Part shown: in pieces, positions 3,256 through 31,995 of the stretch
How the letters are laid out: each line of letters starts with the position of its first letter
How positions within the stretch are numbered: position 1 is the first letter of the stretch
Assembly (NCBI RefSeq): GCF_048300925.1
Contig: NZ_CP133759.1
Strand: one strand, 5' to 3'
DNA from: Thermithiobacillus tepidarius DSM 3134
GTDB taxonomy: Bacteria > Pseudomonadota > Gammaproteobacteria > Acidithiobacillales > Thermithiobacillaceae
DNA: 32,000 nt
Notes under the pieces: model-generated
Database searches by the model: none
What the model was told of the DNA's origin: nothing
The model's input: the letters and a program-made list of their open reading frames with translations, nothing else
Translations under genes and position numbers: made by a program

Positions 3256-3464
3256 GAGCCAGGATGCCGGCCCGCCAGGATTTGGCACGGCACCGCAGCC
3301 GCCCGGAATACCCGTTTCCGCGGAAAGCCGGCAGGTGAGAGGGACAATGCGGCTAGGGCGGGTTCGCTGCAAGATTGGATGCCCACGGAGCGACTTGGGA
3401 CTGGAGCGCAAGGTCAGGCATTCCACTCGCATTTCACGACTCACGTTTCACCTACCGGACGCAC

Positions 3465-5963: not shown

Positions 5964-5970
5964 GTGCGGC

Positions 5971-7173
5971 ATGAACGAGACCGACAAGTTTGCGCCCCGG
6001 AGCCTGCCCACCCGCGATGCGCTGTTCATCGGCGCGGCCCGCTACCGGCGGCCGAGCTACACCTCCAATCACCCGCTGGCCATCCCGCGGGTCTCCCTGG
6101 CCTTGGATCTCATCAACGCCTACGGCGCCATCACGCCCGCCGAGTACCTGACCGGCCGCAAAGCCAGCAACAAGGAGCTGACCTGGTTCCACGAGCCGGC
6201 CTATATCCAGGCGTTCCAGCGCGCCCAGTTCCGCGGCAAGGTGACCCAGGCCGATCGCGAGCGCTTCCAGCTCGGCAACCTGGAAAATCCGTATTTCCCG
6301 GATTTTTTCGACACGCCGAGCCTCGCCACCGGCTCCAGCATCCAAGGGGCGGAGCAGGTGCTCGCCGGGCGCACCGCCTTCAGTCCGGCGGGCGGCATGC
6401 ACCACGCCGCGCCGCATCAGGCGCGCGGCTTCTGCTATCTCAACGATCCGGCATTGGCTATCATGCGCCTGCGGCGGGCGGGACTGCGGGTGTTGTACCT
6501 GGATATCGACGCGCACCATGGCGACGGGGTGGAAGCCGCCTTCGTCGATGATCCGGAGACTCTGACCGCCTCCATCCACATGGACACGAGCTACGCCTAT
6601 CCCTTCCAGGGCGGCGGCATCGACGACCAGCCGGGTGGTGCCGTCAACCTGCCCCTGCCGCCGGGCATCAACGACGCGGAGTACCGCCTGGCCTTCCACA
6701 GCCTGTGGTCGCGGCTGCTGGAAGGCTTCCGGCCGGACGTGGTGGTGCTGCAGGCGGGGACGGACATCCTGACCCACGATCCCCTGAGCAAATTCCGGGT
6801 CTCCAACGGCGTGTTCTGGGAGGCGGCGACACGCGTCATCGACGAGAGTCCACGGCTGCTGGTGCTGGGCGGCGGCGGCTATCATCCCATCGCCTTGGCG
6901 CGCTGCTGGACCGGCGTGTGGGCGCGACTGACGGGACGCGCTCTGGACGAGCGCCTGCCGGATGCCGCCAGTGCCCTGCTGCGCGCCGTCAACTGGGAGC
7001 TGGACGACGAAGATGCCGAGGAAACCGAGCGGCTGTATACCCACTTGAGCGACCTGCCCAACGACGGCCCGGTGCGGGAAGAAGTGCGGGCGCGCGTGCA
7101 GCGGCTGCTGGACAGTCACCCGCTGCTGGCGCCGCGGGTCATGGCCGTCAGACAGATTGAAAGCAAGGACTGA
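5971..7173 (+). CDS. Histone deacetylase / acetoin utilization (AcuC/HDAC-like) family protein
   Basis: 'GGMHHAAPHQARGFCYLNDPALAI', 'LYLDIDAHHGDGVEAAF', 'LGGGGYH': class I/II HDAC active-site and zinc motifs. Starts 7 nt after the cbbO stop. Confidence 0.88.
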   Translation: MNETDKFAPRSLPTRDALFIGAARYRRPSYTSNHPLAIPRVSLALDLINAYGAITPAEYLTGRKASNKELTWFHEPAYIQAFQRAQFRGKVTQADRERFQLGNLENPYFPDFFDTPSLATGSSIQGAEQVLAGRTAFSPAGGMHHAAPHQARGFCYLNDPALAIMRLRRAGLRVLYLDIDAHHGDGVEAAFVDDPETLTASIHMDTSYAYPFQGGGIDDQPGGAVNLPLPPGINDAEYRLAFHSLWSRLLEGFRPDVVVLQAGTDILTHDPLSKFRVSNGVFWEAATRVIDESPRLLVLGGGGYHPIALARCWTGVWARLTGRALDERLPDAASALLRAVNWELDDEDAEETERLYTHLSDLPNDGPVREEVRARVQRLLDSHPLLAPRVMAVRQIESKD

Positions 7174-7183
7174 GACGAACCCC

Positions 7184-8332
7184 ATGCCAAACCAAGAAAC
7201 TGCATTGCTGCCCGGCCATGCCACGCCGGAGGGGACCAAGGCCTATCAGGCCCGCTTCGGCGCCCGCCTGCCCGAGTCGCATTACAGCGACTTTCTGAAG
7301 ACGCACATCAAGATGTCATCCATCGGCATCGGCACCTTTCCGGGGCAGCCCGACGAGGCCACCGACGAGGCCTACGCCCGGATCGTCAGCCGCGCGCTGC
7401 AGGAAGGGGTCAACGTCATCGATACCGGGGCCAACTACCGCTACGGCCGCTCTCCGCGCGCGGTGGGGGAGGGGGTGCGCCGGGCTTTGGCGGCGGGCGT
7501 GCCCCGCGAAGCCATGTTCCTGGTGTCCAAGGGCGGTTTCCTCACTCTGCCCGAGGGACGGCCCGACGACATGGCGGCTTTCTTCAGGCGGGAGATCATG
7601 GCCAAAGGACTGGGCTCGCCCGAGGACTTGGCCCAAGGCATCCATCTGCTGAACCCCGCCTACATCCTTTGGCAACTGGAGCAGAGCCGCCGGGCCATGG
7701 GCGTGGAAACCCTGGACGCCTTCCTGGTGGACCAGCCGGAGATCCACATTCCGCTGATCGGCAAGGAGCGCATGCACCGCAAGCTGCTGCGCGTTTTCGA
7801 GGCGCTGGAGATGGCGGTGGCGGCGGGCAAGCTGCGTTACTACGGTATTTCCACCTTCAATGCTTGCCGGGTCGAGACGGACAATCCGCTCTTCCAGTCC
7901 ATGACCAGTCTGATCGGCTTGGCGGAGAAGGCTGCCGGCGAGGGCAAGCGGCACCACCTGCGCATCGTGCAGATGCCCTTCAACTACCTGATGACCGAAG
8001 GCTTCACCCGCTTCAGCCAAGCCACCGGCCAGGGCAATGTGGCCTCCACCATCCAGGCCGCCTTCCAGCTGCGCCTGTATCTCATGGCCAGCCACACCCT
8101 GGGCAAGGGCATCCTGGCCCGCGAGAGCCCGGAAATCTTCCCGGCCATGATGCCCACGTTGGCCAATCCGGCGCAGCGGGCCATCCAGTTCAACCGCTCC
8201 ACGCCGGGGGTGGGCACCACCCTGGTGGGCATCAGCCAGCCGGCCCACCTGGAAGATGCGTTGGCGGTGGCGCGCAGCGAGCCTTTGCCGAAGGAGCAGT
8301 ATCTGAAAATGTATCAGCGGGCGGAGGATTAG
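7184..8332 (+). CDS. Aldo/keto reductase family protein (atypical active site)
   Basis: 'VNVIDTGANYRYGRSPRAVGEGVRRAL', 'FLVSKGGF', 'LRYYGISTFNA'. ATG at 7184 preferred over TTG 7157. Confidence 0.8.
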   Translation: MPNQETALLPGHATPEGTKAYQARFGARLPESHYSDFLKTHIKMSSIGIGTFPGQPDEATDEAYARIVSRALQEGVNVIDTGANYRYGRSPRAVGEGVRRALAAGVPREAMFLVSKGGFLTLPEGRPDDMAAFFRREIMAKGLGSPEDLAQGIHLLNPAYILWQLEQSRRAMGVETLDAFLVDQPEIHIPLIGKERMHRKLLRVFEALEMAVAAGKLRYYGISTFNACRVETDNPLFQSMTSLIGLAEKAAGEGKRHHLRIVQMPFNYLMTEGFTRFSQATGQGNVASTIQAAFQLRLYLMASHTLGKGILARESPEIFPAMMPTLANPAQRAIQFNRSTPGVGTTLVGISQPAHLEDALAVARSEPLPKEQYLKMYQRAED

Positions 8333-8358
8333 GCCCCAGCGGAGCCGGCATTCGCACA

Positions 8359-8381
8359 GCAGCCCCCGCGCTGGGGGCTGC
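8359..8381. terminator. Strong GC hairpin between convergent genes, possible bidirectional terminator (no clear U tract)
   Basis: GCAGCCCCC-GCGCT-GGGGGCTGC, perfect 9-bp stem; lies between stops at 8332 (+) and 8401 (-). Confidence 0.45.
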
Positions 8382-8400
8382 CCGGGCCGGGCGGGACAGC

Positions 8401-8684
8401 CTAGTGGCTGTAGCGGCGGTTCAGGAAGTAGAGCACGGACAAAAAGCCCAAGGCCAGCATGACGGAGTCCAGGTTGGGGTGGCGCGCCGGATGGGCTTCC
8501 TCCTCGGCCAGCAACCTGCTCAAGTCGGCTGCATCGGCTGCGCCCAGCGGAGTGCCAGACGCGCTGGCCAGCAGCGGGATGCTTTGCGGAGCCTGCGCCA
8601 AGGCGGTCAGCGGCATGGCTGCAAGCAGTATGGCGCAAAGGAACAGCAGAGCAAACAGGCTTCCCTTTGGAAGACGGTTTTCCA
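8401..8684 (-). CDS. Small exported hypothetical protein with N-terminal signal and C-terminal hydrophobic helix
   Basis: 'MENRLPKGSLFALLFLCAILLAAMPLTALAQA' signal-like start; C-terminus 'LDSVMLALGFLSVLYFLNRRYSH'. ATG at 8684 chosen within track ORF 8401..8712. Confidence 0.55.
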
Positions 8685-13710: not shown

Positions 13711-14586
13711 ATGTTCCAAGGCAGTATGGTTGCCCTGGTGACGCCCATGCAGGACGACGGCACCCTCGACGAGGTCCGTCTGCGCGAGCTGGTGGAGTGG
13801 CACCTGTCCGAGGGCACGGATGCCATCGTGGCCGTGGGAACGACCGGCGAATCCGCCACGCTGAACGAGACGGAACACCTGCGCGCCATCCAGATCGTGG
13901 TGGAACAGGTGCGTGAGCGGGCGCCGGTGATTGCCGGCACTGGGGCCAACGCCACCAGCGAGGCCATCGCGCTCACCACGGCGGCGGCGGAGCTGGGGGC
14001 CGACGCAGCCCTGCTGGTCACCCCCTACTACAACAAGCCGACCCAGGAAGGCCTGTTTCAGCATTATCGCGCCATTGCCCAGGCCTGCCCCCTGCCGCAG
14101 ATCCTCTACAACGTGCCTGGGCGCACCGGCTGCGATCTGCAACCCGCCACCATCGAACGCCTGGCCGCGATTCCCAATATCATCGGGGTCAAGGAGGCCA
14201 CCGGCAACATCACCCGCGCCGAGGAGATCCTGGCCCGCTGCGGCGGGCGCATGGACGTCTATGCCGGCGACGATGCGTCAGCCTTGGCGCTGATGCTGCT
14301 GGGTGCCAAGGGCGTCATCTCCGTCACCGCCAACGTGGCGCCGGGCGACATGGCGCGCATGTGCCGCGCGGCACGCGAGGGCGACCTGGCGACGGCGCGC
14401 ACCCTCAACGACAAGCTGCTGCCCCTGCACGTGGATCTCTTCCTTGAATCCAATCCCATCCCTGTCAAATGGGCGTTGGCGGAGATGGGCCGCATCGGCC
14501 CGATGCTGCGCCTGCCCCTGACCCCGCTCAGCGAAAGCTTGCGGCCCCAGCTCTTGGCGTCCATGCGCCAGGCGGGCTGCCTGTGA
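13711..14586 (+). CDS. dapA: 4-hydroxy-tetrahydrodipicolinate synthase
   Basis: 'MFQGSMVALVTPMQDDGTLDE', 'VAVGTTGESATL', 'YYNKPTQEGLFQH', 'YNVPGRTG', 'GVKEATGN'. Confidence 0.95.
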   Translation: MFQGSMVALVTPMQDDGTLDEVRLRELVEWHLSEGTDAIVAVGTTGESATLNETEHLRAIQIVVEQVRERAPVIAGTGANATSEAIALTTAAAELGADAALLVTPYYNKPTQEGLFQHYRAIAQACPLPQILYNVPGRTGCDLQPATIERLAAIPNIIGVKEATGNITRAEEILARCGGRMDVYAGDDASALALMLLGAKGVISVTANVAPGDMARMCRAAREGDLATARTLNDKLLPLHVDLFLESNPIPVKWALAEMGRIGPMLRLPLTPLSESLRPQLLASMRQAGCL

Positions 14587-14618
14587 TTTTGCCGATTCCA
14601 GTCCGGAGATCGAAACCC

Positions 14619-15758
14619 ATGTCGCGTTGGATCATCGTTGCCGCCTCGTCGGCGTTCCTGCTGGCCGGCTGCCAGTATTTGCCTTTCACGGGAGATAAGA
14701 GCGGGCCCAAGTACAATGACGCCAAGACTCTGCCCCCCCTGGAAGTGCCGCCGGATCTCCTGGCCGCGCCGGTCCAGCCGGGATTGCAGATCCCGCCCGC
14801 CAGGGCGGCGGCACCGGCGGGGGGCAGCCCTGCCAGTCCGGCGCCCGCCAGTCCGGCCGGTTTCGCCGTGTCCGAACGCGGTCGCGATGTGCCGTCCGCC
14901 GCGCCGGCCGCAACGCAGCCGGCAACAGTCGCCGCCAGTACGCTGACGGACAGCGGTGCGGCCTCCACTCTGCGCGTCCAGATGCCTGCCGCCGTGCTGT
15001 GGCCGGTGGTGCGGACGGCCCTGCAGAAGGAGGGCTTCACGGTGGCCAGTCTGGACGAGCAGGCCGGCGTGCTGGAAACGGATTGGCAGGGGCAGCGTAC
15101 TGGCTTGAGCGCTCTGCTCGGATCGGCCGTGGCCCCGAACGCGCGGGAAAAATACATCGTGATCATGCGCGGCGAAGCGGATGGCAGCCAGGTGCTGAGC
15201 GCGCGGCAGATCCGCCAGGACAGCGATCCGCAGACGACCGGCGAGGCCTGGACCGAGGCGCAACCCGATGCCAAGGCGGTGGTGGCCCTGCTGAAGTCCA
15301 TCCAGGAGAGCATCGAGCAGGGTGGCAAGCAGGCCGCTCTGCCATCCATGAAAGTGGAGCGCCTGCGCGATCAGCAGGGCAGCTATCTGGTGTTGAGCCT
15401 GCCGCCGGAGCAGGCCCAGGCGCGGGTGGAAGAAACCCTCAAGGGTTTGGGCTATCAGGCCGTGGCCGGCCAGCGCCCGGGCGAGTTCGTCGTCACCGCG
15501 TCGGCGGAGCAGGCGCAGAAGAAAAAGGGCATCCTTGCGGACATCTGGTCGCAATTGAGCGAGGGCGTGCGCGGCGCTTTCCGCAGCGATGACAAGGCCA
15601 AGGCGGCGCAAGTGCAGATGCGCGTGCGCCTGTCCCGCGATGCCCAAGGCCCGGGCAGCGTGTTGGAGGTGCTGCCGGTTGACCAGGGCGCCCAGGGCGC
15701 GGTGGAGCGCCTGCTGCAGCAGTTGGCCGAGCGTCTGGGCGGCCGTTCGGCCGCCTGA
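14619..15758 (+). CDS. bamC: Outer membrane assembly lipoprotein BamC (NlpB)
   Basis: Lipobox 'LLAGCQYLPF', 'LPPLEVPPDLLAAP', BamC-like repeats; located immediately after dapA as commonly seen. Confidence 0.85.
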   Translation: MSRWIIVAASSAFLLAGCQYLPFTGDKSGPKYNDAKTLPPLEVPPDLLAAPVQPGLQIPPARAAAPAGGSPASPAPASPAGFAVSERGRDVPSAAPAATQPATVAASTLTDSGAASTLRVQMPAAVLWPVVRTALQKEGFTVASLDEQAGVLETDWQGQRTGLSALLGSAVAPNAREKYIVIMRGEADGSQVLSARQIRQDSDPQTTGEAWTEAQPDAKAVVALLKSIQESIEQGGKQAALPSMKVERLRDQQGSYLVLSLPPEQAQARVEETLKGLGYQAVAGQRPGEFVVTASAEQAQKKKGILADIWSQLSEGVRGAFRSDDKAKAAQVQMRVRLSRDAQGPGSVLEVLPVDQGAQGAVERLLQQLAERLGGRSAA

Positions 15759-16538: not shown

Positions 16539-17846
16539 ATGATCGAACGTTATACCCGCCCGGAAATGGGCGCCCTGTGGACCCAGGAAGCCAAGTATCA
16601 GGCCTGGCTGGACGTGGAGCTGGCCGCCTGTCGGGCCTTGGCGGCCCAGGGCCGGATTCCGGCCGAGGATCTAGCCACCATCGAGGCCAAGGCCGCTTTC
16701 GACGCGGCGCGCATCGAAGAGATCGAACGCGAGGTCAAGCATGACGTCATCGCCTTCTTGACCTCCGTAGCCGAGTTCGTGGGGCCGTCCAGCCGCTTCA
16801 TCCACCAAGGGCTGACCAGCTCCGACGTGGTGGACACCGGCTTCGCCCTGCAATTGAAGCGGGCCGGCGAGCTGCTGCTGCAAGGCATGGACCGTCTCAT
16901 GCGCGCCCTGCACCGCCGTGCCTGGGAACACAAGGACACCATCATGATCGGTCGCTCCCATGGCATCCATGCCGAGCCGGTGACCTTCGGCCTCAAGCTG
17001 GCCGTCTGGTACGCCGAGGCCGGCCGCAACCGGGCACGGCTGCAGGCTGCCATCGACGACGTGGCGGTGGGCATGCTCTCCGGCGCGGTGGGCACCTTCG
17101 CCAACATCGATCCCTCGGTGGAAGAGGCGGTGTGCCGCGAGTTGGGCCTGACCCCCGAGCCGGCCAGTACCCAGGTCATTTCCCGCGACCGCCACGCCCA
17201 TTTTTTCAACACCCTGGCCGTGATTGCCGGCTCCATCGAAAAGATTGCGGTGGAGATCCGCCATCTGCAGCGCACCGAGGTGCTGGAAGCCGAGGAGCCC
17301 TTCACCAAGGGGCAGAAGGGCAGCTCCGCCATGCCGCACAAGCGCAACCCGATCCTGTCGGAGAACCTGACGGGTTTGGCGCGGCTGGTGCGCGGCTATG
17401 CGGGCATGGCCCTGGAGAACATCGCCCTCTGGCACGAGCGCGACATCTCCCATTCCTCCGTGGAGCGGGTGATCGGGCCGGATGCCACCATCACGCTGGA
17501 CTTCATGCTGCATCGGGTGAGCGGGCTCATCGAAAACCTGGTGGTCTACCCCGAGAACATGCTGAAGAATCTCAACCAGATGCACGGCCTCATCTTTTCG
17601 CAGCGGGTGCTGCTGGCCCTCACCGAGAAGGGCGCGCTCCGGGAGGATGCCTACCGCTGGGTGCAGCGCAACGCCATGCGCGTCTGGGAGGCGGGCGAGG
17701 ACTTCAAGTCCCTGCTGGCCCGGGATCCGGACGTGAGCGGCAAGTTGAGCCCGGCCGAGCTGGATGAGCTCTTCAGCCTGGATTACCACACCAAGGAGAT
17801 CGACCGGATCTTCGAGCGGGTGTTCGGGCCGTCCCTTTCCGTGTAA
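16539..17846 (+). CDS. purB: Adenylosuccinate lyase
   Basis: '[14 protein letters not shown]', signature '[12 protein letters not shown]', 'HDVIAFL', '[12 protein letters not shown]'. Confidence 0.97.
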
Positions 17847-17875: not shown

Positions 17876-18586
17876 ATGCAAAAAGGCGAGCAACTGTACG
17901 AGGGCAAGGCCAAGGTGGTGTACGCCACCGACGACCCCCAGCGCCTCATCCTGCACTTCAAGGACGATACCTCCGCTTTCGACGGCGAGAAGGTGGAACG
18001 CTTGGCCCACAAGGGCGAGGTGAACAACAAGTTCAACGCCTTCATCATGCAGAAGCTGGCGGCGGCGGGCATCCCCAATCACTTCGAGCGCCTGCTCTCC
18101 GAGCGGGAGAGCGTAGTCAAGCGTTTGGAGATGATCCCGGTGGAGTGCGTGGTGCGCAACGTCACCGCGGGCTCCATCTCCCGACGCCTCGGCGTGCCCG
18201 AAGGCATGGAACTCGATCCGCCTACCTTCGAGTTCTTCCTCAAGAACGACGCTTTGCATGATCCCATGGTCAACGAGTCGCACATCCGTGCCTTCGGCTG
18301 GGCCACGGAAGAAGAGGTGGCACGCATGAAGGAGCTCACCTACAGGGCCAACGAGGTCCTGAAGAAGCTCTTTGCCGACGCCGGGCTGATCCTGGTGGAC
18401 TTCAAGCTGGAATTCGGCCGCTTCGACGGCCAGGTGCTGCTCGGCGACGAGTTCAGCCCGGATGGTTGCCGCCTGTGGGATGCGCAGACGCGCGAGAAAC
18501 TGGACAAGGATCGCTTCCGCCGCGGCTTGGGGGGCGTGGTGGAGGCGTATCAGGAGGTGGCGAGGAGGCTGGGGGTGGCGTTGTAG
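17876..18586 (+). CDS. purC: Phosphoribosylaminoimidazole-succinocarboxamide synthase (SAICAR synthetase)
   Basis: '[34 protein letters not shown]', '[13 protein letters not shown]', 'LVDFKLEFG'. Confidence 0.97.
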
Positions 18587-19928: not shown

Positions 19929-22900
19929 ATGCTCCAAATTCGCGGCTCCGCTGCCCTGTCTCCCTTCCGTCTGGACAAGCTGATGTCCGCCCTGCGGGAA
20001 AAAACTCCGCACATCCGCCATGTTTACGCCGAATTCGTCCACTTTGCTGAGTTGGGCGGTGATCTGGGCGCGGATGAGCACATTGTGCTGGAGCGTCTGT
20101 TGACCTACGGCCCCAGGCTGGCGGAGGAGGAGCCCGTCGGGCAATTGTTGCTGGTGCTGCCGCGCTTCGGCACCATCTCGCCCTGGTCCAGCAAGGCCAC
20201 CGACATCGCCCGGCATTGCGGTCTCGAAAAAATCAGGCGCCTGGAGCGGGGCGTGGCCTTCTATGTGCGCAAGGCGGACGAGAGCGCCCTGACGTCCGCC
20301 GAGCGGGCGGCGCTGCTGCCCCTGATCCACGATCGCATGACCGAGATGGTGGTGGACGATCTGGCCGATGCCGAGGGCCTGTTCCGGCACGCCGAGCCGG
20401 CGCCCCTGCAGACCGTGGATGTCCTGAACGGCGGCCGGGCGGCGCTGGCGCAGGCCAATCTGGCCTGGGGCCTGGCCTTGAGCCCGGACGAGATGGATTA
20501 TCTGGTGGAGAATTTCACCCGCATGGGGCGCAACCCCACGGACGTGGAGCTCATGATGTTCGCCCAGGCCAATTCGGAGCATTGCCGCCACAAGATCTTC
20601 AATGCCGAATGGGTCATCGACGGCGAGCGGCAGGAACTGTCCCTTTTCGCCATGATCCGCAATACCCACCGGCAGCATCCCGCGGGCACCCTGTCCGCCT
20701 ACAAGGACAACGCGGCGGTGATCGAGGGCTTCGCCGTCGAGCGCTTCTTCCCCGACCCCGAAACCCAGGGCTATGCTTACCATGCCGAGGATACCCACAT
20801 CCTCATGAAGGTGGAGACCCACAATCACCCCACCGCCATCTCGCCTTTCCCGGGGGCGGCGACCGGGGCCGGCGGCGAGATCCGCGACGAGGGCGCCACC
20901 GGCCGCGGCGCCAAGCCCAAGGCGGGGCTCAGCGGCTTTTCCGTGTCCAACCTGCGCATTCCCGGTGCCGAGCAGCCCTGGGAACAGCCGGCCTACGGCA
21001 AGCCGGAACGCATCGCTTCGGCGCTGGACATCATGCTGGAAGGCCCCATCGGCGCGGCGGCCTTCAACAACGAGTTCGGGCGTCCCAGCATCTGCGGCTA
21101 CTTCCGCACCTTCGAGCAGGCGGTGGCCGGCGAAGTGCGCGGCTATCACAAGCCCATCATGCTGGCCGGCGGCCTGGGCAACATCCGCCCCCAGCACGTG
21201 CAAAAGCGGGAGATCCCGGCGGGCGCCTATCTCGTCGTGCTGGGCGGGCCGGCCATGCTGATCGGCCTGGGCGGCGGCGCTGCCTCCAGCGTGGCCACCG
21301 GCGAGGGCCAGGAGGAGCTGGATTTCGCCTCGGTGCAGCGCGGCAACCCGGAGATGCAGCGCCGCGCCCAAGAGGTGATCGACCGGTGCTGGCAGTTGGG
21401 TGAGGCCAATCCCATCGTGTCCATCCACGATGTGGGGGCGGGCGGCCTGTCCAATGCCCTGCCGGAACTGGTGAACGATGCCGGCCGCGGCGGACGCTTT
21501 CAGCTGCGCAGCGTGCCCAACGAGGATCTGGGCATGTCGCCCATGCAGATCTGGTCCAACGAAGCCCAGGAGCGCTACGTGCTGGCCGTCGGCCAGGAGC
21601 ATTTCGAACGCTTCCGGGCCCTGTGCGAGCGCGAGCGTTGCCTTTATGCGGTGGTGGGCGAAGCCACCGCCGAGCAGCGCCTGGTGCTCGAAGACAGCTA
21701 CTTCCGCAACACCCCCATCGACATGGAGCTGAGCGTGCTGCTGGGCAAGCCGCCGCGCATGACCCGGGTCGTGCAGCGTTTGCCGCGCCCGGCGGTGCCC
21801 CTCGACAGCACCGGCATCGAGCTGCGGGAGGCGGCCTACCGGGTGCTGCGCCTGCCGACCGTGGCGGACAAGCGCTTTCTGATCACCATCGGCGACCGCA
21901 GCGTCGGCGGGCTGGTCTGCCGCGACCAGATGGTCGGCCCCTGGCAGGTGCCGGTGGCCGACGTGGGCGTCACCGCCATGAGCTTTACGGGCTATCGAGG
22001 CGAGGCCATGAGCATGGGCGAGCGCACGCCGATGGCACTGCTCGATCCGGCCGCCAGCGGCCGCATGGCCATCGGCGAGGCGCTGACCAACCTGGCGGCG
22101 GCCCGCGTCGAGCGCCTGGAAGACGTGAAGCTGTCTGCCAACTGGATGGCGCCGGCCGGCCACCCGGGCGAGGACGCCGGCCTCTATGACACGGTCCGGG
22201 CCGTGGGCATGGAGCTGTGTCCGGCGCTCGGCATCGCCATCCCGGTGGGCAAGGATTCCATGTCCATGAAGACGGTCTGGCGCGAGGGCGGGGAGGACAA
22301 GGCGGTCACCGCGCCCCTGTCCCTGATCGTGTCCGCCTTTGCCCGGGTGCCGGACGTGCGCAGGACCCTGACGCCGCAGCTACGCGCCGATCCGCAGACG
22401 GATCTCTTCCTCGTCGACCTCGGCGCCGGCCGCAACCGGCTAGGCGGCTCGGCGTTGGCCCAGGTCTACAAGCAGCTGGGCGACACACCGCCCGATCTCG
22501 ACGATCCGCAGCTCTTCAGAGGCTTTTTCGCCGCCGTGCAGCAGTTGAACGAGGCCGGCTTGGTGCTGGCCTACCACGACCGCTCCGACGGCGGCCTCTT
22601 CGCCACCCTCTGCGAAATGGCCTTCGCCGGGCACTCGGGCCTCGACGTGCAGCTCGACGGCCTGGGCGACGAGCCGCTGGCCGTGCTCTTCAGCGAAGAG
22701 CTCGGCGCCGTGCTGCAGACCCCTCGCGCGGCACGGGAACGGGTGCTGGCCGTGCTCGGTCAGCACGGATTGGCAGCCGTCAGCCACTGCATCGGCGCAC
22801 CCGCGAGCGACGACCGCATCGTTTTTCGCATGGGCGGGCGCGAGGTGCTGGCGGACAGCCGCATCGATCTCCAGCGCGCCTGGTCGGAGACCAGCTACCG

Positions 22901-23816
22901 CATGCAGTCCCTGCGCGACAACCCCAAGTGCGCCCAGGAGGAGTACGATGCCCTGCTGGACGCCGAGGATCCCGGCCTGCATGCTCATCTGAGCTTCGAT
23001 CCCGACGAGGACGTGGCCGCGCCCTATCTCAACCTGGGCACCCGGCCGCGGGTGGCCGTCCTGCGCGAACAGGGCGTCAACGGCCAAGTGGAGATGGCGG
23101 CGGCCTTCGAGCGCGCCGGCTTCGCCGCCGTGGACGTGCACATGAGCGACATCATCGCCGGGCGGGTCAGTCTGCAGGATTTCCGCGGCTTCGTCGCCTG
23201 CGGCGGCTTTTCCTACGGCGACGTGCTGGGCGCCGGCGAGGGCTGGGCCAAGTCCATCCTCTTCAATGCTCGCGCCCGCGACGAGTTCGAAGCCTTCTTC
23301 CAGCGCAGCGACAGCTTTGCCCTCGGTATCTGCAATGGTTGCCAGATGATGTCGAACCTGCACGAGATCATCCCCGGCGCCGAGCTGTGGCCGCACTTCG
23401 TGCGCAACGAATCGGAGCAGTTCGAGGCCCGGCTGGCGCTGGTGGAGGTGCCGGAAAACCCGTCCATTTTCTTCCGAGGCATGGCCGACTCGCGCATGCC
23501 CATTGCCGTGGCCCACGGCGAAGGCCGGGCCGAATTCCGCGATCCGGCGCAACTGGACCAGGCGCTGGCGTCCGGGATCGTGGCCATGCGCTGGGTGGAT
23601 CACCGCGGCCAGCCGACCCAACGCTATCCTTTCAACCCCAATGGCTCGCCCAGCGGCATTGCCGGGCTGACCACGCCCGATGGACGCTTCACCGTTGCCA
23701 TGCCGCATCCGGAGCGCGTGTTCCGGGCGATACAGCACTCATGGCGGCCGGACGATTGGAGCGAGGATGGCCCGTGGATGCGGATGTTCAGGAATGCGCG
23801 CGTGTGGACCCAGTGA
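19929..23816 (+). CDS. purL: Phosphoribosylformylglycinamidine synthase (full-length single-chain FGAR amidotransferase)
   Basis: 1295 aa; '[12 protein letters not shown]', '[34 protein letters not shown]', C-terminal GATase '[11 protein letters not shown]', 'MPHPERVFR'. Confidence 0.97.
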
Positions 23817-25641: not shown

Positions 25642-26148
25642 ATGATTGACGCAGACGGCTACCGTCCCAATGTGGGGATGATAATTTGCAATGACAAGGA
25701 CGAAGTGCTGTGGGCGCGCCGCATCGGAGAGCGCTCCTGGCAGTTTCCGCAGGGCGGCATGCACCCCCACGAGAGCCCGGAAGAAGCCATGTTTCGGGAG
25801 CTGAAGGAGGAGGTGGGTACCGACAAGGTCGAAATTCTGGGGCGTACCCGCAACTGGCTGCGCTACGAGCTCCCCTACAGCCGTCACCGTGCCCGCTCGC
25901 GCACCCGCTACCGCGGCCAGAAGCAAATCTGGTTCCTGTTGCGCTTTGCCGGTGATGAAGAGGAGATCAACCTGGCCACCGCCCGGCCTGAATTCGACGA
26001 GTGGCGCTGGGTGGACTACTGGTCGCCCATCGACGAGATCATCGAGTTCAAGCGCCAAGTCTATCAGCAGGCCCTATGCGAACTGGCGCCCTTGCTGGGC
26101 AAGGCGGTGCCGTCGGGGCGCTGGGCAGTGCGTAGCGGGAGCGTGTAG
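25642..26148 (+). CDS. rppH: RNA pyrophosphohydrolase (Nudix)
   Basis: 'MIDADGYRPNVGMIICN', 'SWQFPQGGMHPHESPEEAMFRELKEEVG' Nudix box. Confidence 0.95.
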   Translation: MIDADGYRPNVGMIICNDKDEVLWARRIGERSWQFPQGGMHPHESPEEAMFRELKEEVGTDKVEILGRTRNWLRYELPYSRHRARSRTRYRGQKQIWFLLRFAGDEEEINLATARPEFDEWRWVDYWSPIDEIIEFKRQVYQQALCELAPLLGKAVPSGRWAVRSGSV

Positions 26149-27368: not shown

Positions 27369-27824
27369 CTAGCCGTTGCCGGTATTCGCCCGCTCGCTTC
27401 TGCTTTCCGGGCGCGGCGGGTAGCGGATGGCCAGGGTACGGGCGCCCACCAGCACGGCCAGGAGCCCGGCGATGGCCAGCAGGTCGGGCCAGGCGAGGCT
27501 GTGGCCGTACAAGCCGATGAGGAGTTCGCGCATGATGAAGACGATGGTGACGTCGGCCAGCACGTGCAGGCGGATGCGATGGAACTCCACGTAGTCGGTG
27601 AAGGTGCGGAACAGCTCGATGAGGACGAAGACGCCGAGCACATTGATGACCAGCTGGGTAACGCCCTTGCCGGCGCTGTCGACCACCGGAAAGATCAGCA
27701 TGAGGTCCATGACCAGCTTGTAGAAGCTGATGGCCAGGGTCACCAGCATGACCAGGATCAGGCCGATGACGAGGATGTCCAGAAGCTGCGCGTAAAGGCG
27801 CATGGTGCGGTTTTTCAGATCCAC
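27369..27824 (-). CDS. psiE: Phosphate-starvation-inducible PsiE-like membrane protein
   Basis: 'FYKLVMDLMLIFP...LIELFRTFTDYVEFHRIRLHVLADVTIVFIMRELLIGLYG'. GTG start at 27824 preferred: SD GGGAGG sits 7 nt upstream. Confidence 0.75.
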   Translation of the reverse strand: MDLKNRTMRLYAQLLDILVIGLILVMLVTLAISFYKLVMDLMLIFPVVDSAGKGVTQLVINVLGVFVLIELFRTFTDYVEFHRIRLHVLADVTIVFIMRELLIGLYGHSLAWPDLLAIAGLLAVLVGARTLAIRYPPRPESRSERANTGNG

Positions 27825-27842
27825 TTTCGTTCCTCCCAAAAG

Positions 27843-27867
27843 CAAAGGGCCCGCGAAAGGCCCTTTG
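27843..27867 (-). terminator. Terminator-like hairpin after the E2-E3 gene, before psiE
   Basis: CAAAGGGCC-CGCGAAA-GGCCCTTTG 9-bp stem, followed on the minus strand by CTTTTGG. Confidence 0.55.
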
Positions 27868-27879
27868 GGTTGAGCGCTC

Positions 27880-30870
27880 TCAGGCGCCTTGCTTGGCCGC
27901 GCTGCGCCGCAGCCGGGACAGCAGGCGGCGGGCCATCTCTCCGAAGAGCTCCGTCTGCGTCGGGTGCGGATGGATGGCGTGGGCCACCTGCTCCAGGGTC
28001 AGGCCCGCCGACACCATCATGACCGCCTCGCCGATCAGGGTGTCCGCGTGGTCGGCCAGGAAGTGCACGCCGACGATGCGGTGGCTGCTCTTCTCGGCGA
28101 CGATCTTGATGAGGCCGTCGGTTTCGCCGGTCATCATGGCCTTGGCGTCGATGCTCATGGGCACCTTGACTTCGGCGCAGTCCAGGCCCCGGGCCTTGGC
28201 CTGCTCCACGGACAGGCCCACGAAGGCGGCTTCGGGCCGGGTGAAGATCACGCCGCAATCCTTGGCCTCGTCGTACTTGGCCGGGTGGCCGAGCAGGTTG
28301 GAGGCCGCCACGCGGCCCTGCTGGCCCGCCGTGTGCGCCAGCATGAGCCCGCCGATCACGTCGCCGACGGCGTAGATGTGCGGCACGTTGGTGCGGCCGC
28401 CGGCATCCACGGCGATGGCGCCGCGCTCGCCGAGCTGCACGCCGGCGGCGGCCAGATTCAGGCCATCGGTCTGCGGACGCTTGCCGGTGGCCATGAGGAC
28501 CAGATCGCAGTCGAGCCGCTGCTCGCGGCCTTCGCCGTCGGCAAAGCGCACGCGCATGGCGCCGGGCTGGCCGTCGATGGCCTGCACCTTGGCGCTGGTC
28601 AGGATCTGCATGCGCTCCTCGGCGGAGAGCAGCTTCGCCAGGGTGGTGGCGATCTCCGCTTCCACTTCGGCCAGGGGCCGGGCCTGGGCTTCCAGCACGG
28701 TGACCTCGGCGCCGAAGTCGCGGAAGATCTGCGCCATTTCCATGCCGATGGCGCCGGCACCGATCACGCACAGGCGGCGGGGCGGGGAGGCCAGGTTCCA
28801 GACCGTGTCGGAAGTGACGACGCCGCCGCTTTGCAGGCCCTCGGCCGCGCCGGGAATGGGCGGCACGAAGGTCGGGGCGCCGGTGGCGATGACGGCGGCG
28901 CCGAAGCTGATCTCGCCAGCGTCCTTGCCCTCGATGCGGACACCATGGGGGCCGGTGAAGCTGGCGAAGCCTTCGAGCACGGCGATCTTCATGCCCTTGT
29001 CGGTCTTCAGCGCCATTTCGCCGCGGGTCTGCAGGACCTGCTTGCGGTGGGCCTCCAGGCGCTCCCAATCGAGCTCGGGACGGTCGGTGTTCCCAATGCC
29101 CAGCAGAGCGTCATGATGGCGGTCGCGCATGCGGTCGGCGGCCGCGCGCCAAGCCTTGGACGGAATGCAGCCGCGCCACAGGCACTCGCCGCCGGGCAGG
29201 GGGGCATTGTTGATCATGGCCACCTTGATGCCGTGCTCGGCCAGTTCGCGGGCGCAGTCCTCGCCGCCCGGGCCGCCGCCGATCACCACCACCTGATAGT
29301 CGTAGTCGCCCGCCGGGATGGCCGGACCGGGACTGCCGAGCCAGGACTCCGGCTGCTCGATGACGCGCTTGAGATCCACCAGGAAGGCGGCCGCCTCGGC
29401 GCCATTGACCACCCGGTGGTCGGCGGTGATGGTGATGGGCATGCCGCTGGGTCCGGCGGCGGCGATGGCGATGATGGCCGCAGTGCCGGGGGTGACGATG
29501 GCGTCGAATTGGGCGACGCCGTACATGCCCATGTTGGAAACCGTGAAGGTGGGGTTGGCGTACTCCTCGGGAGCCAGGCGGCGCTTGCGCGCCCGTTCGA
29601 CGATGCCGTTCCATTCCTGGTGCAGCGTCTGGACGTCGCGGGCGCCGACATTGCGCAGCACCGGTACCACCAAGCCGCCGCCCTCGGCGGTCACGGCGAT
29701 GCCGATATCCTGGAAGTCGCGCTCGACGATCTTGTCCACCGGCTGATAGGCGGCGTTGACCAGGGGATGCAGCTTGAGCGCCTCGGCGGCGGCCTTGGCG
29801 ATGGCCACGGTCACGGACACGCCGTTGGCCTTGGCGGCGCGGATCAGCGCCTCGGGCTGCACGTTGACGGTCACATGGAAGGTCGGCATGGTGAGGCTCG
29901 CCGTCATGCTGCGGCTGACCGCCTTTTCGATGGCGCTCATGGGCCGGCCTTCGCCGGGCACCTGGATCTCGGGCAGCTCCCAGCCAGCGGGGGCGGCGGC
30001 TGCTTGGCCCGGCCGGGCTTGCAGCACGTCGTTGCCGACGATCAGGCCCTGAGGACCGCTGCCGTTCAGGCCGGCAAGGTTCACATTCAGGCCGCCGGCT
30101 AGCTTGCGCGCGTAGGGCGTGGCGAGCTTGCCCGCCGGGCGCGGAGCCGGCTTGCCGCCGGTCAGGATCGGGGCGGCCGCGGATGCCGGTTTGGATGGCG
30201 CGGCGGAGGACTGGGTTGTCGCCTGGGTTTCCGGCGCCTTGGCCGCGCCAGCCACTTTCACCGACTCGCTGACCACTTGCTCGGGATGATCCACCAGGTA
30301 GCCCATGGCTTCGCCGACGGGCACGACGCTGTCCACGGCGGCCAAGGGGCCGGACAGGTAGCCTTCGCGGAACACCTCCACGTCCATGATGGCCTTGTCG
30401 GTCTCCACGGTGGCGACCACGTCGCCGCGATTGATCTTGTCGCCCGGCTGCTTCTCCCAGGACACCACCACGCCTTCGGTCATGGTGTCGGACAGCTGCG
30501 GCATCTTGATAGTATAGCTCGCCTCCGCCGGCGCAGCGGCGGGCGCGGCAGTCGGGGCCGCGGTGTTGGGGGTGGGCTCGGCCATGGCCACGGCGCCGCC
30601 GGGAGCCACTTGGCCCACTTCCTCCGGCGTGGCCACCAGGTAGCCCATGGCTTCGCCGACGGGCACGACGCTGTCCACGGCGGCCAAGGGGCCGGACAGG
30701 TAGCCTTCGCGGAACACCTCCACGTCCATGATGGCCTTGTCGGTCTCCACGGTGGCGACCACGTCGCCGCGATTGATCTTGTCGCCCGGCTGCTTCTCCC
30801 AGGACACCACCACGCCTTCGGTCATGGTGTCGGACAGCTGCGGCATCTTGATGACATAAGCTTCGGCCAT
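27880..30870 (-). CDS. Fused dihydrolipoamide acyltransferase (E2) - dihydrolipoyl dehydrogenase (E3), with two N-terminal lipoyl domains and a PSBD
   Basis: One uninterrupted 996-aa ORF: two 'VVATVETDKAIMDVEV' lipoyl motifs; PSBD 'ATPYARKLA...GPQGLIVGNDV'; E2 'ADHRVVNGAEAAAFL'; E3 FAD site 'VVIGGGPGGEDCA', disulfide 'GGECLWRGCIPSK', NAD site 'VIGAGAIGMEMA', 'HPHPTQTE'. Confidence 0.9.
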   Translation of the reverse strand: MAEAYVIKMPQLSDTMTEGVVVSWEKQPGDKINRGDVVATVETDKAIMDVEVFREGYLSGPLAAVDSVVPVGEAMGYLVATPEEVGQVAPGGAVAMAEPTPNTAAPTAAPAAAPAEASYTIKMPQLSDTMTEGVVVSWEKQPGDKINRGDVVATVETDKAIMDVEVFREGYLSGPLAAVDSVVPVGEAMGYLVDHPEQVVSESVKVAGAAKAPETQATTQSSAAPSKPASAAAPILTGGKPAPRPAGKLATPYARKLAGGLNVNLAGLNGSGPQGLIVGNDVLQARPGQAAAAPAGWELPEIQVPGEGRPMSAIEKAVSRSMTASLTMPTFHVTVNVQPEALIRAAKANGVSVTVAIAKAAAEALKLHPLVNAAYQPVDKIVERDFQDIGIAVTAEGGGLVVPVLRNVGARDVQTLHQEWNGIVERARKRRLAPEEYANPTFTVSNMGMYGVAQFDAIVTPGTAAIIAIAAAGPSGMPITITADHRVVNGAEAAAFLVDLKRVIEQPESWLGSPGPAIPAGDYDYQVVVIGGGPGGEDCARELAEHGIKVAMINNAPLPGGECLWRGCIPSKAWRAAADRMRDRHHDALLGIGNTDRPELDWERLEAHRKQVLQTRGEMALKTDKGMKIAVLEGFASFTGPHGVRIEGKDAGEISFGAAVIATGAPTFVPPIPGAAEGLQSGGVVTSDTVWNLASPPRRLCVIGAGAIGMEMAQIFRDFGAEVTVLEAQARPLAEVEAEIATTLAKLLSAEERMQILTSAKVQAIDGQPGAMRVRFADGEGREQRLDCDLVLMATGKRPQTDGLNLAAAGVQLGERGAIAVDAGGRTNVPHIYAVGDVIGGLMLAHTAGQQGRVAASNLLGHPAKYDEAKDCGVIFTRPEAAFVGLSVEQAKARGLDCAEVKVPMSIDAKAMMTGETDGLIKIVAEKSSHRIVGVHFLADHADTLIGEAVMMVSAGLTLEQVAHAIHPHPTQTELFGEMARRLLSRLRRSAAKQGA
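30291..30510. repeat. Direct repeat copy A (encodes second lipoyl domain)
   Basis: Identical by eye to 30633-30852; offset 342 bp (114 codons, in frame). Confidence 0.9.
30633..30852. repeat. Direct repeat copy B (encodes first lipoyl domain)
   Basis: Partner of 30291-30510. Confidence 0.9.
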
Positions 30871-30957
30871 GCTACACCTTTTTAGTGAGCTGTCAGCGGA
30901 CCGCCAACCTGTGCGGAAAGACGGGGCCCGCTGTCTGCAAGACTTGGAAAACTGGAT

Positions 30958-30978
30958 TCACGCTGCCTGGCAGCGTGA
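30958..30978. promoter_or_regulatory. Perfect palindrome in the pdhB - E2/E3 spacer
   Basis: TCACGCTGCC-T-GGCAGCGTGA, 10-bp arms around one centre base, no U tract. Confidence 0.5.
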
Positions 30979-31023
30979 GCGGGGGCAGCGGGATCAAGCC
31001 GCGGCGCCGCCCGCGATGACTAC

Positions 31024-31995
31024 TTACTTGCCGAGCATCCGCAGCACCGCATGCACCACTTGCGAGGCATTGGGAATGGCGGCTTTTTCCAGCTTGTGAT
31101 TGTAGGGAATGGGCACGTCGGCGGCGTGGATGCGCACCGGGGCGGCGTCCAGCTCGAAGAAGGCCTCTTCGTTGATAATAGCGATCACTTCGGAGCCCAC
31201 GCCGCACGGTGCCTCGTCTTCCTCCACCACGATGGCGCGGTGGGTCTTGGCCACGCTGGTCTTGATGGCGGCGCGGTCCAGCGGCTTCAGGGCGCGCAGA
31301 TCGACCACTTCGCAGTCGATGTTGTGATGCTTGGCCAGGAACTCGGCGGCTTCCAGCGCCCAGTGCACGCTGATGTTGTAGCCGAACAGGGAGACGTCCT
31401 TGCCGGGACGGATCACCTCGGCGCCTTCCAGGGGCGTGAAGTATTCCTCGTCCGGCACCTCGCCTTTCATGTTGTACATGAGTTCGTGTTCGATGATCAC
31501 CACCGGGTCGTCGCAACGTACGGCGCTCTTCAGCAGGCCGTAGGCGTCGCGGGGATCGCGGGGAGTGACCACGCGCAGGCCGGAAACGCCCATGAACACT
31601 TTCTCCATGCGCGCCGAGTGCTGGGCACCGAGCTGGTGGGCGGTGCCGCCGGGCATGCGGACCACCACCGGGGCCTTGATGCGGCCGCCGGACATGTAGT
31701 GGACCTTGGCGGCCACGTTGATGATCTGATCCATGGCCAGCCAGGCGAAATTGACGCTCATGATTTCGATGATGGGACGGCAGCCGATCATGCTGGCGCC
31801 AATGCCGATGCCGGTGTAGGAGTTTTCGGAGATGGGCGTGTCGATGATCCGCTCGGGACCGTATTTGGCGTAGAGGCCCTGGGTGGCCTTGTAGGTGCCG
31901 CCGGCCACGCCGATGTCCTCGCCCATGGCGAAGACCAGGGGGTCGCGGGCCAGCTCTTCATCGTGGGCCCGCTGAATGGCCTGCCAGTACATCAT
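31024..31995 (-). CDS. pdhB: Pyruvate/2-oxoacid dehydrogenase E1 component beta subunit
   Basis: 'MYWQAIQRAHDEELARDPLVFAMGEDIGVAGGTYKATQGLYAKYGPERIIDTPISENSYTGIGIGASMIGCRPIIEIM'; upstream of the E2-E3 gene on the same strand. Confidence 0.92.
   Translation of the reverse strand: MMYWQAIQRAHDEELARDPLVFAMGEDIGVAGGTYKATQGLYAKYGPERIIDTPISENSYTGIGIGASMIGCRPIIEIMSVNFAWLAMDQIINVAAKVHYMSGGRIKAPVVVRMPGGTAHQLGAQHSARMEKVFMGVSGLRVVTPRDPRDAYGLLKSAVRCDDPVVIIEHELMYNMKGEVPDEEYFTPLEGAEVIRPGKDVSLFGYNISVHWALEAAEFLAKHHNIDCEVVDLRALKPLDRAAIKTSVAKTHRAIVVEEDEAPCGVGSEVIAIINEEAFFELDAAPVRIHAADVPIPYNHKLEKAAIPNASQVVHAVLRMLGK

Follow-up and report, generated by a model that had tools for sequence, protein, structure and literature searches.

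The locus described here raises the question whether one polypeptide can be both the acyltransferase (E2) and the dihydrolipoyl dehydrogenase (E3) of a pyruvate dehydrogenase (PDH) complex and, if so, where the E3 would be placed in the assembled particle. In the analysed stretch of DNA (32,000 nucleotides, hereafter the window) a single open reading frame extends from 27880 to 30870 on the minus strand, starts with ATG and encodes 996 amino acids (ORF listing of the window). All features described below are on the minus strand.

Domains and genetic context

From its N-terminus, the 996-residue protein consists of two lipoyl domains, a peripheral-subunit-binding domain (PSBD), the E2 catalytic domain, a six-residue Gly/Pro spacer and a complete E3. 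The Pfam E-values of the domains, 1e-28 to 1e-70 each, are far beyond chance. A sequence-only reading had proposed that two lipoyl domains, PSBD, E2 and a complete E3 share one 996-residue frame, and this was upheld by the ORF and by Pfam.

Lipoyl domain 1 (residues 4-78, 30637..30861; Pfam Biotin_lipoyl) and lipoyl domain 2 (residues 120-193, 30292..30513; Biotin_lipoyl at 120-189) carry their lipoyl-lysines, K45 (codon 30736-30738) and K159 (codon 30394-30396), in the sequence ETDKA, of which the DKA motif is near-invariant across the family. At the DNA level, lipoyl domain 2 and the unit of lipoyl domain 1 share 97-100% identity. The two domains are separated by Ala/Pro-rich flexible linker 1 (residues 79-119, 30514..30636; column conservation 0.30, AF2 pLDDT 33-37) and followed by flexible linker 2 (residues 194-247, 30130..30291; conservation 0.40, pLDDT 28-31). 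The PSBD comprises residues 248-284 (30019..30129), with a Pfam E3_binding (PF02817) match of 37.8 bits (cutoff 23.7) at 249-283. Its R255 is invariant, whereas the Arg of the usual 'GR[IV]' motif is replaced by Leu; this Arg was present in 0 of 100 family members, versus all 7 of the E2 representatives that are truly unfused. Linker 3 (residues 285-308, 29947..30018; pLDDT <50 at residues 289-299) connects the PSBD to the E2 domain.

The E2 catalytic, core-forming domain (residues 309-511, 29338..29946) matches PF00198 (2-oxoacid_dh) with 162 bits over profile positions 7-231 of 232. Its active-site residues are S445 and H485, the latter in DHRVVNG (His codon 29416-29418); S445, D484, H485, R486, N489 and G490 are all invariant among the aligned relatives. 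Taken alone, the E2 half scored 322.7 bits with TIGR01349, still the top E2 model (sucB 204). This score is below the equivalog cutoff of 445, and the domain is therefore a diverged E2p outside that equivalog set. The best solved matches were the 60-mer mammalian E2p structures 8x03 and 6ct0. The domain ends with PESWL, in the same place where canonical E2 ends: the alignment to 8x03 reaches the last three residues of that protein, where the fused chain goes on, and PESWL, the hydrophobic 'ball' at the C-terminus, pairs with PITMLL of the mammalian sequence.

The E3 half (residues 525-996, 27883..29298) matches Pfam Pyr_redox_2 with 236 bits (residues 525-852) and Pyr_redox_dim with 99 bits (residues 873-979). 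It contains the FAD motif GGGPGG (residues 531-536), the redox disulfide C563/C568 (GGECLWRGCIPSK), the NAD motif GAGAIG (G704-G709) with E727, and the dyad H969/E974 in HPHPTQTE, all invariant in 50 sequences. The equivalents of D344 and E431 of 1EBD are D867 and S954; these E3-side 'electrozipper' positions are variable among ordinary free E3s and are therefore uninformative on loss of PSBD binding.

This half might not be a PDH E3 at all but a diverged flavoprotein disulfide reductase that acts, for example, in an antioxidant relay with the lipoyl domains. Its best NCBIfam model, TIGR01350, narrowly missed the equivalog cutoff (390.6 versus 408.8 bits; MerA-type models 322), an Arg-rich helix (974-995) takes the place of the canonical '...AIHF' tail at the C-terminus, and the nearest non-E2 relative, P0124, is a lipoyl-E3-CMD (AhpD-like) protein, suggestive of a peroxidase relay in its lineage. 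Lipoamide dehydrogenase is, however, the top family by ~70 bits. Sequence and fold comparisons alike gave overwhelmingly E3s as the best matches (1ebd_A, E=4e-74; Foldseek TM(target) 0.83-0.89, E=1e-43, to solved E3s including 1EBD and 2EQ7), and single mercuric reductases appear only lower down the lists. The invariance of CxxxxC, of the NAD-specifying Glu and of the His-Glu dyad argues in the same direction, as does the fusion of this half to E2 in a three-gene PDH operon; no second E3 gene was found in the visible parts of the operon. We consider a non-E3 function very unlikely, and both halves, as judged from their motifs, look catalytically competent; each of the catalytic motifs is intact in the window protein and conserved in more than 120 relatives.

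Directly upstream, in the same operon, is an E1beta (pdhB-like) gene of 323 codons (31024..31995; Pfam Transket_pyr and Transketolase_C), separated from the fused gene by a 153-nt intergenic region (30871..31023) with a ribosome-binding-like (Shine-Dalgarno-like) motif, AAGGTG, ahead of the fused-gene ATG. The E1beta scored 376.3 with the PDH E1beta model NF006667 (NCBIfam, cutoff 321), and the orthologous E1alpha 406.3 with TIGR03182 (cutoff 393.85). With both E1 subunits above PDH-specific models, the complex is, by sequence, PDH rather than an acetoin, BCKDH or OGDH complex. The E1alpha gene is expected past the window end and is present in the related locus L064. Directly downstream of the fused gene lies a PsiE-family membrane protein gene (27369..27845; Pfam PsiE), whose position is conserved, although its product probably does not belong to the enzyme. 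A promoter and terminator scan gave one weak promoter-like match that runs into the start codon. Its two terminator-like matches arise from the lipoyl duplication in the coding sequence, read on the wrong strand; all three were discarded.

The joint between E2 and E3

The joint (residues 512-524, 29299..29337) consists of the spacer GSPGPA and the E3 N-terminal cap IPAGDYD, and the window protein reads here PESWL-GSPGPA-IPAGDYDYQVVVIGGGPGGEDCA. A linker had been placed near 29300-29345, and its sequence, ESWLGSPGPAIPAGDYDYQVVVIGGG, was indeed located at residues 508-533 (window ~29272-29349). The joint has the pattern of the family: PExW[LM], a short G/P/A spacer, then [IP]PxGxWD[YV]..VVVIGGGPGGEDCA.

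The trivial explanation, a sequencing or assembly artefact in which a lost stop or an indel at ~29320 merged adjacent pdhC and lpd genes, has some precedent in the separate, adjacent E2 (4981-6375) and E3 (7292-8647) genes of the distant alphaproteobacterial locus L063, and in the related locus L060, which is split across frames. L060, however, has frameshifts throughout, E1beta included, and is therefore a poor assembly. In the window GC3 was 0.82-0.95 in every 100-codon window of the fused ORF (0.90 for codons 451-550 and 0.87 for 501-600), and this steady value across the joint argues against a switch of reading frame there. An independent MAG protein, P0001, is also 996 residues long and differs by just 7 residues. 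Independent genomes of 59 species, and finished chromosomes too, have the joint in frame with both flanks conserved, and an artefact can be regarded as extremely improbable.

The six-residue spacer was found in 116 of 120 family proteins (best 120 clusters), with a family composition of 31% G, 27% P and 18% A, and its pLDDT in the predicted monomer was 69, versus 28-42 for the other linkers. From the constant length we first read a rigid joint of fixed length. This reading was downgraded, since the spacers in the genome loci of Thiobacillus, Hydrogenophilaceae and Sulfurifustaceae are 5-23 residues of Ala/Gly/Pro and only the flanking elements are conserved; the variation among these betaproteobacterial members means that rigid mounting is not required.

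The spacer could also be a site where a polyprotein is cleaved, or the boundary could hold an internal start from which free E3 is made. Its G/P/A-rich composition is like that of exposed linkers, the last E2 position is Met in most family members (PExWM-G...), and P0123, a 487-residue protein with 61% identity, begins MGSSAKTTVIPEGDWD, exactly at the joint. The window protein, on the other hand, ends its E2 domain with Leu, and the internal start is therefore not conserved. We found no conserved cleavage motif, clades differ in the length of the spacer (5 to 23 residues), and P0123 could itself be a frameshifted or miscalled fused gene. The maintenance of the fusion across classes argues for selection on the covalent link. 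Processing into two products thus appears very improbable, though less so than an artefact, and we regard the window protein with considerable confidence as a genuine, conserved bifunctional E2-E3 subunit of the PDH complex.

Distribution of the fusion

The arrangement had been thought rare. In a search with the window protein the best 120 clusters (90% identity) were all fused, 884-1140 residues long, and contained both PF00198 and PF07992. Identity to the window protein was 81% for Thermithiobacillus and 66-70% over 98% of the query for Acidithiobacillus (978-996 residues); other hosts are Igneacidithiobacillus, Thiohalospira, Ectothiorhodospiraceae and a Solemya symbiont. A single-frame tblastn HSP extended from E2 through E3 in 59 of the 60 genomes of related species, and at every related locus long enough an E1beta homologue was directly upstream of the fused gene. 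The finished chromosome of Acidithiobacillus sulfuriphilus (CP155436.1) has the order E1a-E1b-E2E3-PsiE. These numbers (at least 120 clusters, at least 59 species) are lower bounds of family size. At the source, members already go by names such as 'pyruvate dehydrogenase complex, E2 and E3 components' or 'Dihydrolipoyl transacetylase and lipoamide dehydrogenase of the pyruvate dehydrogenase...'. With these names, the clusters and the finished genomes, the supposed rarity and novelty must be given up. In Acidithiobacillia, and in many sulfur and iron oxidisers among the Gamma- and Betaproteobacteria, the fused gene is the usual form in which PDH E2 and E3 are encoded. As to whether the fusion is both common and characterised, the first proved true, the second at the sequence level only.

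We take the window protein to be the orthologue of the Acidithiobacillus E2-E3 fusion 'PdhC'; an 'unusual E2-E3 subunit fusion' in Acidithiobacillus (Thiobacillus) ferrooxidans was reportedly described by Powles and Rawlings in 1997. The fusion is real, ordinary for the clade and already known, and only its three-dimensional assembly is new ground. The orthologue in A. ferrooxidans ATCC 23270, ACK79015.1, has 983 residues. A. ferrooxidans PdhC shares with the window protein the architecture of two lipoyl domains, PSBD, E2 and E3, and in both operons the fused gene comes behind those for E1alpha and E1beta; the window host differs in being Thermithiobacillus-like, with 66% GC and T. plumbiphilus (81%) as the best named match. 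The lipoyl duplicates of the window are identical at the DNA level, whereas the T. plumbiphilus fusion has one lipoyl domain. In A. ferrooxidans PDH is given as three genes, AFE3068-70, and 2-oxoglutarate dehydrogenase subunits are absent altogether (PMC2621215).

For genome annotation the fusion is of little consequence. Public records often label the gene just 'FAD-dependent oxidoreductase'. P0123 can be read either as a genuine free E3 or as a miscalled gene. P0122 (536 residues), considered as an unfused close relative, was rejected as a contig-end fragment that still ends 'GPAIPEGNWD'. Protein searches with the junction gave no candidates for a 60-residue query and only 11 short fragments, hence no family count, for a 180-residue query; the word index used is ill-suited to junction-only queries. 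No paper on a PDH E2-E3 fusion was found in the open full-text literature, where matches to 'E2-E3 fusion' all concerned ubiquitin enzymes, and among the sequence and fold matches in the PDB no entry spans both halves.

We also found 13 far more distant E2-E3 fusions, with 26-36% identity. The distant single-chain lipoyl-PSBD-E2-E3 set comprises P0129-P0136, P0143, P0148, P0155, P0161, P0182, P0232 and P0235, two of which carry archaeal names (Bathyarchaeota and Promethearchaeota). Their domain order is identical to that of the window protein, and the PSBD was kept in all ten scanned with Pfam. Unlike the window protein they have one lipoyl domain, and their linkers (11-48 residues) are unrelated. 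In a neighbour-joining tree they were scattered among free E3s; from their sequences they are probably independent events, and they point to recurrent evolution of E2-E3 joining. Altogether at least six apparently independent E2-E3 fusions were counted.

Proposed assembly of the complex

The covalent link was said to fix the E2:E3 stoichiometry, and it is necessarily 1:1. It was also held that the retained PSBD challenges the standard model of E3 docking. Its retention is no paradox, because in a mitochondrial-type complex with alpha2beta2 E1 the PSBD docks E1; the E1 of this operon is of the alpha/beta type, and the ten distant fusions keep the domain as well. In Bacillus stearothermophilus this domain accepts either E1 or E3; the PSBD of mammalian E2 binds E1 alone. 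The lost Arg of the 'GR[IV]' motif hints that the PSBD of the fused family may be re-specialised to E1 only.

The predicted structure is that of a monomer (pTM 0.53) and therefore does not show how E3 is placed with respect to the core. We propose that the E2 domain trimerises and, as it is of the mitochondrial/alphaproteobacterial type, probably builds a polyhedral core via its retained C-terminal hydrophobic 'ball', PExW[LM]. The chain would leave the inter-trimer contact by the six-residue Gly/Pro spacer, which would hold the E3 within a few nanometres of the core instead of ~10 nm out on the PSBD tether. Because E3 is active only as a dimer, each E3, present once per E2, would most likely pair with the E3 of a two-fold-related neighbouring trimer. 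The PSBD would be left free for alpha2beta2 E1 alone, E3 no longer competing, and the swinging lipoyl arms would shuttle between the peripheral E1 and the core, where the sites of E2 and E3 would lie.

The geometry of E3 relative to the core is proposed tentatively, at somewhat less than even odds. With similar reserve, the most simple arrangement may be one in which E3 dimers bridge two-fold-related trimers, as in a designed 'trimer plus dimer' cage fusion. The fused genes could then specify a PDH particle that has never been visualised, with E3 dimers near the E2 scaffold at 1:1 and a PSBD for E1 only, a solution possibly evolved repeatedly.

The fusion would be tolerable in hosts that are mostly chemolithoautotrophs with a TCA cycle lacking 2-oxoglutarate dehydrogenase, where, we propose, E3 need not be shared among complexes. 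The named hosts are chemolithoautotrophs only, and this, with the lack of 2-oxoglutarate dehydrogenase in A. ferrooxidans, suggests a rule that E3 becomes fusable once sharing between complexes ends. The fusion is a natural experiment on the building of 2-oxoacid dehydrogenase complexes: there would be no competition of E1 and E3 for the PSBD, the stoichiometry is fixed and E3 would be forced beside the core, which bears on the swinging-arm model and on how far the lipoyl arms need E3 in the outer shell.

The division of labour would resemble that in the mammalian and yeast PDH complexes with E3BP, whose E2 is of the same mitochondrial type. There the PSBD of E2 itself serves E1, and a dedicated covalent element attaches E3 to the core. 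E3BP, however, is a core-integrated paralogue that holds E3 non-covalently and sub-stoichiometrically, whereas in the window protein E3 is part of every E2 chain. Lipoyl-E3 fusions, such as Neisseria P64k (1OJT/1BHY), the N. gonorrhoeae protein 5U25 and many proteins of 560-600 residues, also have E3 covalently joined to a PDH module and show that an N-terminal extension of E3 is tolerated. They carry a lipoyl domain alone on a long flexible linker and are free dimers docking on the PSBD, whereas the E3 of the window protein starts six residues after a core-forming E2 domain. Actinobacterial OdhA/Kgd, in which an E2o-like acyltransferase is fused to E1o, is another case in nature where two catalytic components of one 2-oxoacid dehydrogenase complex are fused, but there the E2 is joined to E1, is without lipoyl domains and uses those of E2p (PMC8146983).

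The fused E2-E3 gene

On the minus strand, a single ORF spans 27880-30870 (996 codons in the ORF listing of the window); it starts with ATG, preceded by a Shine-Dalgarno-like AAGGTG. The sequence-only reading, which gave no strand, had described its product as one chain with two lipoyl domains, a PSBD (peripheral-subunit-binding domain), E2 and full E3, and had proposed a domain search of the 996-aa protein. Pfam returned all of these parts: two lipoyl domains (residues about 4-78 and 120-189), E3_binding/PSBD (249-283) and the 2-oxoacid dehydrogenase acyltransferase domain, which at 309-511 covers positions 7-231 of the 232-position profile. They are followed by a complete pyridine-nucleotide disulfide oxidoreductase domain (525-852) and the E3 dimerisation domain (873-979). 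The peptide quoted earlier as the linker corresponds to residues 508-533. Third-position GC was 0.82-0.95 in all 100-codon windows of the gene, joint included, and this steadiness shows that the frame does not change at the joint. The fused gene is real and was rightly described.

Comparison with other genomes showed that the fusion is not an artefact. A protein search of a 5.8-billion-protein collection was performed and the best 120 clusters were taken; all were 884-1140 aa long and contained both PF00198 and PF07992 (120/120). A 250-aa query across the joint retrieved 60 related species-representative genomes; E2 ran into E3 in one tblastn HSP and one frame in 59 of these. The lone exception, a 665 kb MAG contig (CAVZVG010000005.1), had both E1beta and E2E3 broken into 4-6 frames each; frameshifts all through, E1beta included, indicate a poor, indel-ridden assembly. 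The E1beta gene (58-80% identical) lay just upstream of the fused gene in every locus reaching far enough. On the finished Acidithiobacillus sulfuriphilus chromosome (CP155436.1) the order is E1alpha (328 aa)-E1beta (326)-E2E3 (996)-PsiE (157), which the window matches with E1beta at 31024-31995 upstream of E2E3, and PsiE at 27369-27845. P0001, a database protein from an independent MAG, is likewise 996 aa long, with 7 residues different from those of the window protein.

The arrangement had been taken to be rare. The 120 uniformly fused clusters and the 59 single-frame genomes contradict this. An orthologue of the same family (ACK79015.1, 983 aa) is present in Acidithiobacillus ferrooxidans ATCC 23270, and two source names in the collection count as earlier recognition of the fusion: that of EGQ60378.1, "pyruvate dehydrogenase complex, E2 and E3 components", and that of UniRef100_E6QEY0. 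Powles and Rawlings reportedly described the fusion in 1997 ("...has an unusual E2-E3 subunit fusion"). Our search of the open-access literature found no paper mentioning a PDH E2-E3 fusion; in the A. ferrooxidans genome paper PDH is given as three genes, AFE3068-70 (PMC2621215). The E2-E3 gene is thus no rarity: it encodes the ordinary PDH subunit of its clade, conserved and recognised before.

Family assignment and distribution

Residue conservation was assessed in an alignment of 50 close-family members. Invariant or nearly so were the lipoyl-lysine motifs (K45, K159), Ser445 and DHRVVNG (H485) of E2, and, in E3, the glycine motifs for FAD and NAD, C563 and C568 of the redox disulfide, E727, which specifies NAD, and the H969/E974 dyad. 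Judged by these residues, both halves look functional. Solved lipoamide dehydrogenases were the closest matches of the E3 half, both in sequence (1ebd_A, E=4e-74) and in fold (TM 0.83-0.89); the closest solved match of the E2 half was the mammalian 60-mer E2p. Both halves scored below the equivalog cutoffs of their models (E3, 390.6 vs 408.8 for TIGR01350; E2, 322.7 vs 445 for TIGR01349), which were still the best-scoring ones; the halves are diverged members of these families. Among the NCBIfam PDH models, the window E1beta scores above the cutoff of NF006667 and the orthologous E1alpha above that of TIGR03182, which identifies a PDH of the alpha2beta2-E1, mitochondrial/alphaproteobacterial type.

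At 50% clustering the entire close family collapsed into one representative, P0121. The named hosts of the family are Acidithiobacillus, Igneacidithiobacillus, Thermithiobacillus, Thiohalospira, Ectothiorhodospiraceae, Solemya symbionts, Thiotrichales, Chromatiales, Thiobacillus/Thiobacillaceae, Hydrogenophilaceae, Sideroxydans, Sulfurifustaceae and Acidiferrobacteraceae. To our knowledge, essentially all are sulfur-, iron- or hydrogen-oxidising chemolithoautotrophs.

The nearest free relatives were about 40-44% (E2) and about 40% (E3) identical, with two exceptions, P0123 (61%) and P0124 (50%). P0123 (487 aa) is an apparent stand-alone E3, which starts with MGSSAKTTVIPEGDWD exactly at the joint; it is possibly a natural fission product, or else a miscalled or frameshift-broken fused gene. 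P0124 (797 aa), the nearest non-E2 relative of the fused E3 lineage, keeps the GDWDY cap and consists of lipoyl, E3 and a C-terminal carboxymuconolactone-decarboxylase/AhpD-like domain with CxxC (Pfam CMD, 50 bits). Its domains suggest a reductase relay of lipoyl, Lpd and AhpD parts within one chain.

Thirteen far more distant single-chain proteins span E2 and E3 (26-36% identity, 646-928 aa); the distant chains in the database set were P0129-P0136, P0143, P0148, P0155, P0161, P0182, P0232 and P0235. All ten scanned with Pfam had the order lipoyl-PSBD-E2-E3 with one lipoyl domain. Two carry the names Bathyarchaeota and Promethearchaeota (Asgard); for some the sole annotation is 'hypothetical protein'. 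The linkers of the distant proteins (11-48 aa) are unrelated, and in an unbootstrapped neighbour-joining tree these proteins lie scattered between free E3s, which suggests that E2-E3 fusion arose several times. Another database protein, P0197 (1250 aa), combines two tandem E3-like flavoprotein modules with interspersed EF-hand domains (Pfam); this odd architecture is unrelated to the fused gene.

The joint, the PSBD and a proposed assembly

In the alignment, the fused chain runs on exactly where mammalian E2 ends (PESWL-G vs PITMLL-end). In 116 of the best 120 proteins a 6-residue Gly/Pro/Ala spacer comes after PExW[LM], the end of E2; the conserved E3 N-terminal cap IPxGDWDY and the first Rossmann strand come next. 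Conservation over residues 512-524 was 0.81, level with the catalytic domains, vs 0.30 and 0.40 in the lipoyl linkers. In the AlphaFold2 monomer (mean pLDDT 81, pTM 0.53) the spacer had a pLDDT of 69, vs 28-42 for the other linkers. A rigid joint was considered and dropped, since the spacer reaches 23 Ala/Gly/Pro-rich residues in betaproteobacterial and Sulfurifustaceae members; the shortness of the tether is conserved, but rigidity is not required.

The canonical E3 tail '...G.AIHF' is replaced in the fused family by an Arg-rich C-terminal helix. In the window protein this family-specific element, ELFGEMARRLLSRLRRS, comprises residues 974-996 (27883-27951); R981, R982, L983, R986, L987 and R989 are invariant, and AlphaFold2 predicted a long helix over residues 974-995 (pLDDT 76-92). 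Possible contact partners of the predicted helix are the core and the acidic lipoyl domains.

Retention of the PSBD next to a covalently attached E3 had been seen as a challenge to the docking model. This paradox dissolves when the E1 type is considered, because in alpha2beta2-E1 complexes the PSBD docks E1. The Bacillus stearothermophilus PSBD binds E1 or E3 in a mutually exclusive manner, and that of mammalian E2 binds E1 only, E3 being recruited via E3BP. By this comparison the fused E3 would take away one client of the PSBD, not the need for it. The PSBD was kept in 10/10 distant fusions tested. R255 is invariant in the close-family PSBD, whereas the Arg of the usual "G-R-[IV]" motif, present in 7/7 truly unfused E2 representatives, was found in 0/100 close-family members (Val in 47, Glu in 36, Ala in 12). 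Loss of this Arg is consistent with release from E3 binding, no proof of it; the PSBD-contact positions on the E3 side were uninformative.

The structural question left by the fusion is how a trimer-forming and a dimer-forming enzyme linked by 6 residues assemble. Sequence and fold searches of the PDB found no chain spanning both halves. We propose that E2 trimers would assemble via the retained C-terminal hydrophobic knob, and that the chain would leave the two-fold contact and become E3 six residues later. Since E3 must dimerise to be active, the E3 halves of two-fold-related trimers would most plausibly pair, and do so outside the core; by a rough volume estimate, thirty 100-kDa dimers are too large for the inside of a 60-mer. 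The outcome would be one E3 per E2, near the core, with the PSBDs occupied by E1 alone. In canonical complexes E3 lies about 10 nm out (PMC8146983). Hosts in which no other complex draws on E3 may be able to afford the fused arrangement; no 2-oxoglutarate dehydrogenase subunit is present in A. ferrooxidans, and this lack is typical of obligate autotrophs (PMC2621215).

Lipoyl units and neighbouring genes

The two lipoyl coding units of the minus-strand gene (30273-30510 and 30615-30852) share 97% identity over 238 nt and 100% over a 210-nt core, and they repeat at a period of 342 bp; across the family, the median identity within a genome is 78%. Thermithiobacillus plumbiphilus, the nearest named relative (884 aa), has one lipoyl domain, and the database protein P0003 has three. 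Together these observations indicate a recent tandem duplication or gene conversion in the T. tepidarius lineage. Two identical terminator-like hairpins (30410-30428 and 30752-30770, plus strand) are the antisense reading of the duplicated lipoyl coding sequence, not terminators.

Housekeeping genes occupy 3375-26148: a VWA-domain protein (3375-5963), a histone-deacetylase-family gene (5971-7173), an aldo/keto reductase (7157-8332), an NlpB/DapX-like lipoprotein (14469-15758), purB-like (16539-17846), purC (17876-18586), purL (19929-23816) and a NUDIX/RppH-like gene (25642-26148). The window ORFs scanned showed no second lpd and no further gene for a 2-oxoacid dehydrogenase. The PsiE-family (phosphate-starvation-inducible) membrane protein gene, on the minus strand, lies 34 nt downstream of the fused gene; in A. 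sulfuriphilus, where this synteny is conserved, it overlaps the fused-gene stop codon.
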